Shown: in pieces, positions 57,065 through 60,991 of the stretch | Position numbering within the stretch: the stretch's first letter is position 1 | Layout of the letters: each line of letters opens with the position of its first letter | Assembly: GCA_963725555.1 (NCBI GenBank) | Contig: CAVRYV010000012.1 | Location: 197,962-261,961 of the forward strand | Source: an uncultured Pseudomonadota bacterium | GTDB taxonomy: Bacteria; Pseudomonadota; Alphaproteobacteria; Rhizobiales; Xanthobacteraceae | Direction: 5' to 3' | DNA length: 64,000 bases | The notes under the pieces: model-generated | Databases searched by the model: none | What the model saw: the letters and a program-made list of their open reading frames with translations, nothing else | What the model was told of the DNA's origin: nothing | Program-made: the position numbers and the translations under genes

Positions 57065-58288
57065 TCACGCCTGCTTGCGCAGGGGCCGGTCCGGCATCGC
57101 CATGGCGTCGATCGCGGGCGCCAGCGGCGGCGAAGGGTCGTAAACCGCATGCCGGTTCTTGCCCTCATTCTTGGCGACATAGAGCGCGTGGTCGGCGGCG
57201 GCGATCAGCCGGTCCGGAAATGCGCCCATGTCCCGGGTCCATTGCGCGACCCCGATCGAAACCGCGATCGGGATATCGGTGCCCACGCATCCTTCGGCGT
57301 CCTTGCGACAGATCTCGATGATCCGGCGCGCGATCATCGCGCCTTCGCGCAGCGTGCTGGCCGGCAGCACGACGCAGAACTCGTCGCCACCGGTGCGCGC
57401 CAGCATGTCGCCGGCCCGCAAACGCGTCTGCGTCATCAAGGTGAAATGCTGCAAGCAGGCGTCGCCAGCGGCGTGGCCGTGGGTGTCGTTGATCGCCTTG
57501 AAGCCATCGAGATCAATCACCAATAGCGCAAATGGCTCGCCGCAGCGTTCCGATATGGCACATTCCTCGGTCAGGCGCTGCAACAGACGTCGACGGTTGC
57601 CGACGCCGGTAAGATCGTCCAGCAGCGCCAGATCGGCGACTTCGTTGCGCAGCCGGTCGATCGCCATCAGCAGGAAGCCGAAATTCAACGACATCGACAG
57701 GAAGATCAGCATCAACACCAGCACCCACTGCACCGGATTGGACTGGAAGATCGAGAAATCGCCGCCAGGATGCAGCAGGGTCGCCGCGGTCCGGGCGGCA
57801 TAGAGGCTGATAATGAAAATGGCGACAATGCCCGCGAGCCGGGCGCCAGGGTTTTCGCGACCGTCCTGTCGCGACAGCAGCAGCTTCAGCGTCAGCGCCA
57901 GCGGCGCCGACTGACCCACCGAATAGACCAGGATCCGCATCGGCAGGCTGTCATAGCCGACGAGGAAGAACGCCATGCCGGCGAAACTCAATCCGGTGAT
58001 CACTGCGGAACTACGCCACAATACCGGCTGGCCGTAAAACCGCCTGATGCCCATCGCGGCGAGACAGGCGGCGAAAATCAGCACAGTGCCACCGAACAGC
58101 AGCGGCACCAGTGAATCCACAGCGAAGCGCAGCATTGCCAGCGCAGCACCACCGGCGCCCATGAACGCCGAAGCCGTCCAGAACCGCGCGGCCTCGAAGG
58201 CGGGGTAGCTGCGCAGGACGTAGGCCCAGATCAGGCCAACCGCGAGAAAATTGACGACGAACACTGTCCACAGTGTGGGAACGCTCAT
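57065..58288 (-). CDS. Membrane-bound diguanylate cyclase
   Basis: About 7 TM helices; DDLTGVGNRR, DLDGFKAIND, RTGGDEF. Confidence 0.92.
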   Translation of the reverse strand: MSVPTLWTVFVVNFLAVGLIWAYVLRSYPAFEAARFWTASAFMGAGGAALAMLRFAVDSLVPLLFGGTVLIFAACLAAMGIRRFYGQPVLWRSSAVITGLSFAGMAFFLVGYDSLPMRILVYSVGQSAPLALTLKLLLSRQDGRENPGARLAGIVAIFIISLYAARTAATLLHPGGDFSIFQSNPVQWVLVLMLIFLSMSLNFGFLLMAIDRLRNEVADLALLDDLTGVGNRRRLLQRLTEECAISERCGEPFALLVIDLDGFKAINDTHGHAAGDACLQHFTLMTQTRLRAGDMLARTGGDEFCVVLPASTLREGAMIARRIIEICRKDAEGCVGTDIPIAVSIGVAQWTRDMGAFPDRLIAAADHALYVAKNEGKNRHAVYDPSPPLAPAIDAMAMPDRPLRKQA

Positions 58289-58694
58289 CGTCGTAAGCCC
58301 CGTGAACGCATCGCCCTGCCCTCTTGTTCTTGAACTGGCCGCCCAGATGCCAATTCTTGCAGGCAGGATGCAGCCCCGCCGCTTAACGGAATCTCACCGC
58401 GACAGTCGCAATCTGCGCTTTGGTTTTGATTTAATGAACGTCTGCGCGCGACCGGCCGAAAGCGGCCTCCGACCCGGCTGCGCGCGCCGCCTGTCAGGGT
58501 TAACGATACGCCAACACGCCTCCCGCATGCCAAAACCGCATAACAACTGTGGATAACGCGATGACACCGCTGTGACGACGCGGGGCAGCGCCCCGCGAAT
58601 TTGTTGGGATCGTGTTCGAGGATGTTGCGAGGCTGGCCCTCCGCCGAGCATGCCTCGTGTCGCGTTTCCACCCATTAACCCAAATGAGGATGCT

Positions 58695-58763
58695 ATGGCT
58701 AAGAAAGCGAAGAAGGCTAAAAAGGCGAAGAAGGCAAAGAAGGCCAAGAAGTCCAAGAAGTGA
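58695..58763 (+). CDS. 22-aa Lys/Ala-repeat micro-protein MAKKAKKAKKAKKAKKAKKSKK
   Basis: GAGGA RBS 4 nt upstream; Ala codons vary (GCT/GCG/GCA/GCC); followed by hairpins and a terminator. Confidence 0.7.
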   Translation: MAKKAKKAKKAKKAKKAKKSKK

Positions 58764-58864
58764 CTTCAAGCCCGGGTGGAGCCTCGCTCCGCCCGGGCAC
58801 CCGGCGCCGGGCGCAACGAACTTAAGTGCAACGAGCTCGCAAGCGCAACGGCTTCATCGAAACG

Positions 58865-58886
58865 GCGGGCCTCAGGCCCGCTTTTT
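58865..58886 (+). terminator. Rho-independent terminator (preceded by a 13-bp hairpin at 58770-58798)
   Basis: gcgggcc-tca-ggcccgc-ttttt. Confidence 0.75.
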
Positions 58887-58971
58887 GATTCCGGCACGGT
58901 CAGCGCGGATGATCCATTTCGCCGCGATGCTGTATGATCTGTTCTTCTTCCCGAAATGGAGCCGATACCCG

Positions 58972-59814
58972 ATGACCGTAATTGCTGGAGCCGCCGCAGC
59001 CGTAACCGGAGCGGCCAGTGGCATCGGCCGGGCGCTGGCGCTCGAGCTTGCCGCGCGCGGCTGCGACCTGGCGCTGGCGGATCGCGACGACGCGGGGCTG
59101 GCGGCGCTGGCCACCGAGATCAGCCGTAACTCTTCGCAAAAGGTCACGATTTATCGGGTCGACGTCGGCGAACCCAAACAGATCGAAGACTTCGCGCAAG
59201 CCGTGATCGCAGGCCATCCCGGGCTCAACATCGTCGTCAACAATGCCGGCGTTGCGCTGATGGGCACGTTCGATGAAATCGACCAGGCCCAGATGGACTG
59301 GCTCATGAACATCAATTTTTGGGGTGTGGTGCACGGGACGCGTGCGTTCCTGCCGCATCTCGCCACCCGGCGCGAGGCCCACATCGTCAACGTCTCGAGC
59401 ATCTTCGGCATCGTCGCGCCGCCGGGGCAAACGGCCTATGCCGCGGCGAAATTCGCGGTACGCGGCTTCTCGGAAGCCTTGCGGCACGAGCTGCAGATGG
59501 CGGGCAGCCCGGTTCGGCTCTCCGTGGTGCATCCCGGCGGGATCGCCACCAACATCGCGCGCAATTCCCGCACCGGCACCGGGATGACCGACAACGCGCG
59601 CCGCGCCCAATCGATCGAACGTTTCGACACGGTGGCCAAGACCACACCAAAGGACGCCGCGTTGCGCATCATCCGCGGCATCGAGAAAAACCAGCCGCGC
59701 ATCCTGATTGGCGGCGACGCCCGCATGATGGATCTGCTGCAGCGTTTTCGGCCCGCAACCTATTGGTCGGTGCTGGCGCGCCGGATCGAGAAGATGACGA
59801 AGGCGGGGAAGTAG
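58972..59814 (+). CDS. SDR family oxidoreductase
   Basis: TGAASGIG, NNAG, YAAAKF. Confidence 0.9.
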   Translation: MTVIAGAAAAVTGAASGIGRALALELAARGCDLALADRDDAGLAALATEISRNSSQKVTIYRVDVGEPKQIEDFAQAVIAGHPGLNIVVNNAGVALMGTFDEIDQAQMDWLMNINFWGVVHGTRAFLPHLATRREAHIVNVSSIFGIVAPPGQTAYAAAKFAVRGFSEALRHELQMAGSPVRLSVVHPGGIATNIARNSRTGTGMTDNARRAQSIERFDTVAKTTPKDAALRIIRGIEKNQPRILIGGDARMMDLLQRFRPATYWSVLARRIEKMTKAGK

Positions 59815-59949
59815 GCGAATAATTAGCCGCCACTTCCCGACATCGAGGCCGCGTTGCCTCCCCGCTCCAGGAAGCGGGGTAGCCGCAGCGGCGGCGCTAT
59901 GTGGCTGCCCCCTCTCCAACTTCCCGATTCGCAAGTCGGGCCTGCGCGG

Positions 59950-60511
59950 TGCTGGCGATCGTGGCAGGCCAGCCTGGATCCGCAACGCCTGGTCTTCATC
60001 GACGAGACCTGGATCAAGACCAATATGGCACCGTTGCGGGGATGGGCGCCAAAAGGCGAGCGTCTGCGCGGCTTGGCGCTGCACGGCCGCTGGCGCACGA
60101 TGACGTTCCTCGGCGCGCTGCGATGCGACAACTTCACGGCACCTTGCGTGTTCGACGGACCGATCAATGGCGAGTGCTTCCGCGCCTATGTTGCGCAAGT
60201 GCTTTTGCCATCGCTGAAGCCGGGAGACATCGTCATCATGGACAATCTCGGCAGTCATAAGTCCGCCGAGGTGCGGCGCATGATCAAGACCGTCGGCGCA
60301 AGGCTCTGGTATCTGCCGCCTTACTCACCCGACCTCAATCCGATCGAGCAGGCCTTCGCCAAAATCAAACACTGGATGCGAGCAGCCCAAAAACGCACCG
60401 TCGAAGACCTCTGGCGCCACATCGGAAGCCTTATTAGCACAATCGAAGCCCATGAATGCAGCAACGACTTCGCAAAGAGGATACGCTTCAATCAAACCGT
60501 GAAACGCTCTA
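59950..60511 (+). mobile_element. Truncated IS630-family element (DDE half plus right end)
   Basis: [28 protein letters not shown]; HTH half absent; frameshift near 60475 before GYASIKP*; end GAAACGCTC-TA; left limit approximate. Confidence 0.88.
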
Positions 60512-60991
60512 GCCGGCGCCGCTCTCTACTTCCACGGGCGTGTCCGCTTCTCCGCCAACCACATTGCCGAAAGATGCAAAGAATTCGCCGGCGAGTTTCC
60601 TGGCCGTGGAATTTATCAACCGCTGCCCAAGCTGCGCCAGCTTGCCGCCGATCTGTGCGTCGACTTCGTAACGCAGGATCGTGACATCAGGGCTTTCCGA
60701 TTCCAAACGAACGGCGGCGCCACCTTTCGCAAATCCTGCGACGCCGCCGGACCCCTCGCCTGAGATGCGATAGCTGTTCGGTGGATCGAGATCCGACAGC
60801 GTGACCTTTCCGCTGAATGTTGCCTTCACTGGCCCGACCCGGAACACCACCGTCGCGGTCATCTCGGTCGGTGAGGACATCTCGAGATTCTGACATCCGG
60901 GGATGCATTGCTTCAGCACCTGCGGATCGTTGAGCGCGGCCCACACCTTGTCTTTGGGCGCGGGAATGCGCTGGCTGTCGTTCATCTGCAT
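60509..60991 (-). CDS. coxG: CO dehydrogenase accessory protein CoxG (SRPBCC)
   Basis: [37 protein letters not shown]. Confidence 0.88.

Follow-up and report, generated by a model that had tools for sequence, protein, structure and literature searches.

A conserved unannotated micro-gene of Bradyrhizobium and related genera that probably encodes a lysine- and alanine-rich micro-protein

Does an open reading frame of 22 codons, 14 of which specify lysine, mark a gene for a free polycationic peptide, a regulatory RNA in which the frame is incidental, or a DNA microsatellite? This question is raised by a locus in a stretch of 64,000 nucleotides from a Bradyrhizobium genome, referred to here as the window. 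The original prediction described a self-contained transcription unit beginning at 58560, with a Lys-rich ORF of 22 amino acids behind a GAGGA ribosome-binding site and with a 13-bp hairpin and a terminator downstream. All these elements are present, the former two as judged from the sequence and the ORF list and the latter two from the sequence and a scan (Table 1), with the correction that the ORF itself starts at 58695; its product, read from the sequence, is MAKKAKKAKKAKKAKKAKKSKK. If this peptide is made, there are one to three unannotated genes for extremely basic peptides in Bradyrhizobium and its relatives, a group that includes major soil organisms, legume symbionts, nitrite oxidisers and phototrophs; genes of this kind escape tryptic proteomics, gene callers and profile searches alike.

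Table 1. Features of the micro-gene, its neighbours and its paralog (positions in the window unless a contig is named).
Feature	Position	Strand	Sequence, evidence or remarks
Membrane GGDEF diguanylate cyclase, divergent neighbour	57065-58288	-	PF00990, E=3e-40
DnaA-box-like site	58548-58556	+	TGTGGATAA, reverse complement of the perfect DnaA-box 9-mer TTATCCACA
GC inverted repeat, 8 bp	58579-58597	+	CGCGGGGC AGC GCCCCGCG; scan
Local form of the conserved motif CGAATCTGYTSGGAT	58597-58611	+	GAATTTGTTGGGATC; candidate extended -10 (TGnTGGGAT) or regulator site
Conserved 5' leader core	58618-58694	+	GAGG, GAGG, CCCTCC, GCCTC, GTCGCGTT, CCATTAAC, then Shine-Dalgarno sequence
Leader elements	GAGG 58618-21, GAGG 58629-32, CCCTCC 58637-42, GCCTC 58652-56	+	
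Shine-Dalgarno sequence GAGGA	58686-58690	+	5-nt spacer to ATG 58695
Micro-ORF	58695-58763	+	ATG 58695, stop TGA 58761-58763; sequence and ORF list
GC-rich hairpin, 13 bp	58770-58798	+	arms GCCCGGGTGGAGC/GCTCCGCCCGGGC, loop CTC
Short palindrome	58800-58811	+	
Intrinsic terminator	58864-58890	+	GGCGGGCC TCA GGCCCGC (hairpin 58864-58882), then TTTTTGATT; scan
Short-chain dehydrogenase (SDR), downstream neighbour	58972-59814	+	
Type-2 micro-gene, 30 aa	contig C9:105344-105436 of the same genome (L031 1501-1593)		MAKKAKKAKKAKSAVKKTAKKTRKVAKKKK behind GGAGGGCAAC

The distribution of the unit was established in two samples. A DNA search with positions 58560-58900 as the query, conducted in 24 other Bradyrhizobium species genomes and in 16 genomes of the same order but of different families, recovered the unit together with its leader in 21 of the former, three Bradyrhizobium genomes lacking it, and in none of the latter. 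In a family-wide sample of 201 genomes from 62 genera, DNA search combined with a covariance model of the leader identified the unit in 20 genomes and 8 genera, of which those other than Bradyrhizobium are denoted here by the genus codes of the sample (g34, g35, g51, g53, g56, g58 and g67). The covariance model yields exactly one match per genome, each followed by a K-rich ORF of 16-62 aa, and contributed two additional orthologs with ORFs of 62 and 16 aa; the unit is single-copy. The named genome records that contain the leader core belong to Bradyrhizobium or to unclassified alphaproteobacterial MAGs.

Comparison of the gene neighborhoods supports the view that the unit stands on its own. 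The divergently oriented GGDEF gene, whose start lies about 400 nt from the unit across a spacer of variable length, is a common neighbour in three genera (g1, g51 and g53), and the unit persists without it in g34, g35 and g58. In the genera that lack the GGDEF gene, its place is occupied by the gene that is next upstream in the order of the window, which indicates that the context reflects ancestral synteny and that the unit is self-contained. The same follows from the downstream side, since the SDR gene is present in just 5 of the 38 orthologous loci, with other or convergent genes elsewhere, and since in Bradyrhizobium the unit ends with a conserved terminator; the predicted self-contained character of the unit is therefore upheld. 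Just behind the dehydrogenase gene lies an ORF (59854-60684, plus strand) that resembles the catalytic part of a DDE transposase of the IS630-like type (DNLGSHK) and that may be behind the differing downstream context of the micro-gene between species. In the part of the spacer that is nearer to the GGDEF gene, most Bradyrhizobium orthologs retain the block GCTTAACGGA...TTTGGTTTTGA(W)TT(S)ATGAA, followed after about 70 nt by an inverted partner, CGTTAAGC (together 58379-58440 and 58498-58511), with several GANTC sites within; this region probably controls the diguanylate cyclase gene.

The coding signatures were analysed in 38 orthologs, the alignments including 39 sequences from 6 genera. The encoded peptides are 20-26 aa long within Bradyrhizobium and 16-62 aa across genera, all begin with MAKKAKK, and the register of the K/A repeat shifts among them even between close species. 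GAGG and ATG are invariant across the 38 orthologs, with a spacer of 5 nt in 32 of them, and an in-frame TGA three codons before the ATG in 20 fixes the start and excludes a longer protein; on these grounds, an in-frame upstream extension of the ORF (GTG 58572, 63 aa) was rejected. Another candidate, an antisense ORF with a hydrophobic FFA repeat (58394-58756, minus strand), was also discarded, as it has no conserved start or Shine-Dalgarno sequence and its frame is broken by 1-2-nt indels in the leader. The reading frame is terminated by different stop codons (TAA in 19 orthologs, TAG in 12 and TGA in 7), which are always in frame 0.

After the initial Met, the 38 orthologs contain 537 K, 248 A, 20 T, 11 S, 8 V, 1 Q and 1 P, that is, 65% Lys and 30% Ala, which is the Lys/Ala-rich repeat composition (AKK, KKA, PAKK) of H1-like proteins. 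Against 785 Lys and Ala codons, the only replacements are to T, S, V, Q and P; none of the residues of the 38 orthologs is Asp, Glu, Gly, Arg, Asn, Ile or an internal Met and no internal stops occur, although a single substitution in GCN or AAR would suffice for each of them. Where orthologs encode identical peptides, they differ at third codon positions only. This replacement spectrum matches selection for a non-acidic polycation and would not be produced by repeat slippage.

Slippage has to be considered because of the repetitive nature of the coding part. The original prediction held that the coding repeat is not a DNA microsatellite; indeed, four different Ala codons are used, making the array imperfect, but Tandem Repeats Finder does pick it up, with a 9-nt unit, 7.1 copies and 81% matches, so that this claim stands only in part. 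In a 9-nt tandem array, slippage alone keeps indels in frame, and in-frame length changes by themselves are accordingly no proof of coding. The case for selection on the peptide, which had been proposed from the varying codons, is carried instead by the in-frame varying stops, the restricted replacements and the fixed geometry of Shine-Dalgarno sequence and ATG. On this comparative evidence, the peptide, and not the DNA alone, is judged to be under selection, and the unit is a conserved unannotated micro-gene that is very probably translated.

The nucleotide sequence around the start of the gene is itself strongly conserved. Within Bradyrhizobium, the leader has a mean pairwise identity of 0.83; in the neighbouring gene, second codon positions reach 0.829 and third positions 0.645, and the body of the ORF, with indels counted, reaches 0.72. 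Even at synonymous sites, the first 23 nt of the ORF do not vary within the genus. Conservation at the nucleotide rather than the protein level had been named at the outset as the pattern that would speak against a peptide gene, and it is found in part, in that the leader and the first 23 nt exceed the remainder of the ORF in conservation, so that the RNA may have a function alongside the peptide. The leader core contains, besides the Shine-Dalgarno sequence, two GAGG and two CCUC elements (Table 1), and it is tempting to speculate that these pair alternatively and form a switch. One GAGG/CCUC stem is predicted, with no covariation and with a fold energy that is not better than that of shuffled sequences; the CCCUCC element is found at the tip of the sole recurrent hairpin predicted in the leader. 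The leader has no second copy and no similarity to anything else in the genome, and the idea that it mimics rRNA was dropped because similarity to rRNA was likewise not detected.

Upstream of the leader, conservation starts abruptly about 10 nt before TGTGGATAA. This 9-mer is invariant in all 27 Bradyrhizobium orthologs and in g51, g34, g35 and g56 (five genera), is degenerate in g53 and g67, and is present in 9 perfect copies in the 5.48-Mb genome, compared to about 17 expected. The gap between TGTGGATAA and the next conserved motif, CGAATCTGYTSGGAT (GAATC), measures 39-41 nt, and 18 nt in g35, a difference of about two helical turns. The invariance in five genera, the two gap lengths and the degeneration in two genera suggest that TGTGGATAA may be a regulator site, for which its DnaA-box-like sequence makes it a candidate, or a promoter element, for example, a -10-like one. 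The motif CGAATCTGYTSGGAT is nearly invariant across the 39 sequences from 6 genera and, like its local form GAATTTGTTGGGATC, is a candidate extended -10 region or regulator site. The GANTC site (CcrM-type methylation) GAATC at 58597-58601 is found in 37 of the 38 orthologs and is mutated to GAATT in the window genome. A related sequence, GAATGTGTTGG, precedes the paralogous type-2 gene described below, and a search for a regulon with the pattern GAATnTGTTSG returned unrelated matches at about chance level.

Several positions are candidates for the promoter. A scan of the upstream region of the unit found no consensus sigma-70 site, and the Bradyrhizobium RpoD consensus, TTG-N16-18-TATA (PMC4842269), is unmatched upstream of the micro-ORF. 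Inspection of this region by eye found no conserved copy of the alphaproteobacterial LexA box (GTTC-N7-GTTC) or of an EcfG-type promoter (GGAAC-N16-CGTT). The placements that were weighed, each of which may apply, are the DnaA-box-like site as the -10 element, GGGGCA-N17-TGGGAT with an extended TG, and GCGAAT-N17-GAGGAT. The 7-bp leader hairpin that had been predicted at 58579-58597 corresponds to an inverted repeat that does exist in the window genome, where it comprises 8 rather than 7 bp, but its structure is not conserved: across the 38 orthologs, this stretch folds no better than shuffled sequences in most cases, with z-scores near 0. The repeat seems to overlap a possible -35 and spacer region and may be located in promoter DNA rather than in the transcript.

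At the other end of the unit, structure is preserved. The 3' hairpin is located 5-27 nt past the stop codon across the orthologs, and 12 pairs are predicted from the 39 sequences. Compensatory double changes are seen in 5 of these pairs, and almost none is broken. In the window genome, no good U-tract follows this hairpin; in one g53 ortholog (L046), a U-rich tract does, and the hairpin looks like the terminator there. The intrinsic terminator further downstream has counterparts in loci L001-L021, where a hairpin and a T-run occupy the corresponding position, with differing stem sequences. A long-range pairing between CUCCGCC of the leader and the 5' arm of the 3' hairpin was considered and found to be unsupported by covariation in L018-L021.

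The unit belongs to a wider family of genes that begin in the same way. The start MAKKAKKAK is encoded in 70 of the 201 genomes and 26 of the 62 genera of the family sample, compared to zero matches in the 201 genomes for a reversed-pattern control, and the start MAKKAKKAKK was not found in any of 393 non-Bradyrhizobium genomes of the order representing 60 other families. Among 42 sampled matches to MAKKAKKAK, 39 belong to ORFs of 13-44 aa that are preceded by GGAGG or GAGGA, and the other three are H1-like proteins of 77-118 aa, one of which (L103) begins with exactly the 22-mer of the window. Altogether, H1-like proteins with the MAKKAKK N-terminus span 77-135 aa in the family; judging by these sequences, there is a continuum of lengths from micro-proteins to H1-like proteins. 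The genome of the window encodes a longer H1-like protein, too (C6:364951), as well as a 98-aa protein (C21:140099; L033 1501-1797) with a MAKKAKKAKK start and a Cys-containing C-terminal domain (CYREYPDGSAQVCKLLPDGSYGDCESYF) that has no match in Pfam or NCBIfam. On contig C24 of this genome, at about 95.9-96.4 kb, all three plus-strand frames read as long Lys runs, indicating that the assembly contains a poly(A) tract of some 90 nt or more, perhaps as an artefact.

The search for paralogs and length variants that the original prediction had called for was productive on both counts, with lengths of 16-62 aa among the orthologs and a paralogous gene, denoted type 2, elsewhere in the genome (Table 1). 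In 30 of 34 loci from many genera, the type-2 gene follows gatB at a distance of about 550 nt; it encodes 18-77 aa. Seven species share exactly the same 30-aa form, their genes differing at third positions only, and the nucleotide sequence of the ORF, with an identity of about 98% between species, is nearly invariant within Bradyrhizobium. This near-invariance, together with the conservation of the leader and the ORF start of the gene in the window, suggests that constraints at the RNA level are also involved. Downstream of the type-2 gene (L031, about 1700-1760; also L027, L029, L030 and L024), different species share the block GACGAAAGAGGGTGTCGGCGAGACATCAGGTCAA(A)CGG, which has no Rfam match and could be a structured RNA or the start of a gene.

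Genes of this kind leave few traces in existing catalogues. The peptides of 22, 30, 40 and 44 aa match no family of Pfam or NCBIfam, DUF1127 included, the latter database being searched at E<=10, and a 135-aa relative compared with the H1-like family NF038053 reached 12.9 bits (E=0.096), far from the cut-off of 80. Exact look-up of 10 peptide variants in a collection of 15 billion proteins found none of them, a word-seeded protein homology search produced 1552 candidates, none of which scored at E<=10, and a literature search for AKKAKKAKK found no searchable paper that contains it. The available portions of the supplements that accompany published work on Bradyrhizobium TSSs and sORFs contain no match to the box sequence or to the peptide. 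At the RNA level, nothing in positions 57800-59400 came near the gathering score of any Rfam 15 family at E<=10, ROSE, BjrC and the AbcR-type RNAs included, the paralogous and orthologous loci have no Rfam match either, and probes for BjsR1-10, the validated Bradyrhizobium sRNAs, match none of the loci.

Given these observations, the reading that we prefer, and to which we would give an even chance, is that of a translated and independently transcribed micro-gene, probably overlooked so far, whose product binds polyanions by virtue of its charge in the manner of a histone H1 tail. Removal of Met, which is likely, would leave a peptide of about 21 residues with a net charge of about +14, acting most likely by bulk charge rather than through a defined fold, and this peptide would correspond to the Lys/Ala tail of a bacterial H1-like protein, but as a free molecule. 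The polyanions that it would bind and neutralise are most probably nucleic acids, be it the DNA of the nucleoid or RNA and ribosomes. This function is suggested by composition, and the variable length and register of the orthologs and the continuum towards H1-like proteins speak for action by charge; a peptide that is so short and disordered may be unstable in the cell. Expression would be set by the conserved promoter and leader, with the DnaA-box-like site upstream, the GAGG/CCUC elements could modulate access to the Shine-Dalgarno sequence, and the transcript would end at the conserved 3' hairpin and terminator. A bolder extension, which we consider quite unlikely, is that the gene represents a widespread hidden class of gene-encoded, polyamine-like Lys/Ala micro-proteins with leaders of their own that arose in unrelated phyla, and that the copy in the window (type 1) is switched by DnaA through the perfect box, coupling charge neutralisation in the nucleoid or the ribosome to the replication cycle.

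The conservation of the leader can also be read in the opposite way, namely, that the unit is a dual-function or mainly regulatory sRNA in which a leader of about 80-130 nt and the 3' hairpin are the active parts and the ORF is incidental or serves to stabilise or time the RNA. We regard this as unlikely, even though it would readily account for a leader that is as conserved as second codon positions and more so than the body of the ORF, for the invariant synonymous sites at the start of the ORF, for the near-identity of the type-2 paralogs at the nucleotide level, for a 3' hairpin that is kept both in sequence and by covariation, and for the exposed CCCUCC, a sequence that is anti-Shine-Dalgarno-like and resembles the seeds of alphaproteobacterial AbcR-type sRNAs. 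This explanation is hard to reconcile with the strong coding signatures, with a leader structure that shows neither covariation nor unusual stability, and with the lack of an Rfam match, of identity to BjsR1-10 and of a second copy or related leader in the genome. Far less credible still is a role in cis, whereby the frame would be a Lys-codon leader peptide or attenuator for the downstream gene, or the divergent unit would regulate the GGDEF diguanylate cyclase. Fourteen Lys codons followed by two hairpins are what an attenuator might look like, and the divergent arrangement with the same GGDEF gene recurs in three genera; but the SDR gene is rarely the downstream neighbour and is separated from the unit by a strong terminator, and the GGDEF gene is remote, variably spaced and dispensable for the retention of the unit. 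The 'Lys-sensing peptide' that had been suggested initially is disfavoured for the same reason, as no conserved downstream gene exists and the ORF is followed by a conserved terminator.

Another explanation that retains the peptide assigns it to the ribosome, as a lineage-specific structural micro-protein that, by analogy to bS22, eL41, mS38 or bL37, would fill a pocket in rRNA, with the leader as an autoregulatory site. In mycobacteria, Bacteroidota and Borrelia, peptides of 24-33 aa and about 60% K/R that had gone unannotated proved to be ribosomal, and the pocket of bS22 is structurally conserved (PMC10618245). A six-frame search of 7 Bradyrhizobium genomes with PF08213 (COX24_C, bS22) found no recognisable homolog, while three control genomes, including Corynebacterium glutamicum, matched, one of them above the cut-off, and the absence of a recognisable bS22 from Bradyrhizobium keeps the ribosomal idea alive. 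The strong Shine-Dalgarno sequence, the A-rich invariant initiation region and the location of the type-2 paralog downstream of gatB would also suit a ribosomal protein. We nevertheless hold this assignment to be very unlikely: lengths of 16-62 aa and register shifts between close species are a poor fit to a defined pocket, the peptide has neither the Arg residues nor the hydrophobic anchors that are typical of bS22, eL41 and bL37, some Bradyrhizobium genomes and most genera of the family lack the unit, and the leader does not resemble rRNA.

The locus offers a well-defined and easily tested system: it is single-copy, its start codon is fixed, its leader is highly conserved and its box is rare. 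It could reveal what a free Lys/Ala tail does, whether in nucleoid compaction, in the stabilisation of ribosomes or RNA, or in the binding of polyphosphate, and it is a further indication, after bS22 and bL37, that bacterial genomes are systematically under-annotated for very small polycationic proteins.

Among known systems, the DUF1127 proteins and the AbcR-type sRNAs share with the micro-gene, respectively, the status of a small basic alphaproteobacterial protein and that of a short sRNA-like unit with CCUCC in the leader; DUF1127 proteins, however, are Arg-rich, and the micro-gene has no Pfam or Rfam match to either group. The ribosomal proteins bS22, bL37, eL41 and mS38, of 24-33 aa and with K/R of at least 60%, are encoded by stand-alone genes that escape annotation (PMC10618245), as is the micro-protein, but they are characterised by conserved Arg-rich sequences, hydrophobic anchors and fixed length, whereas the micro-protein is based on Lys and Ala and varies in length and register. 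The closest likeness is to the H1-like proteins, including Hc1 and Hc2 of Chlamydia, AlgP of Pseudomonas, the tail of mycobacterial HupB and the Burkholderia-type NF038053 proteins, with which the micro-protein has in common the AKK/KKA low complexity and, by analogy, the expected charge-driven binding of polyanions. In contrast to these proteins, the repeat makes up the entire micro-protein of 16-62 aa, with no other domain and no profile match, and the micro-gene has a highly conserved leader of its own.
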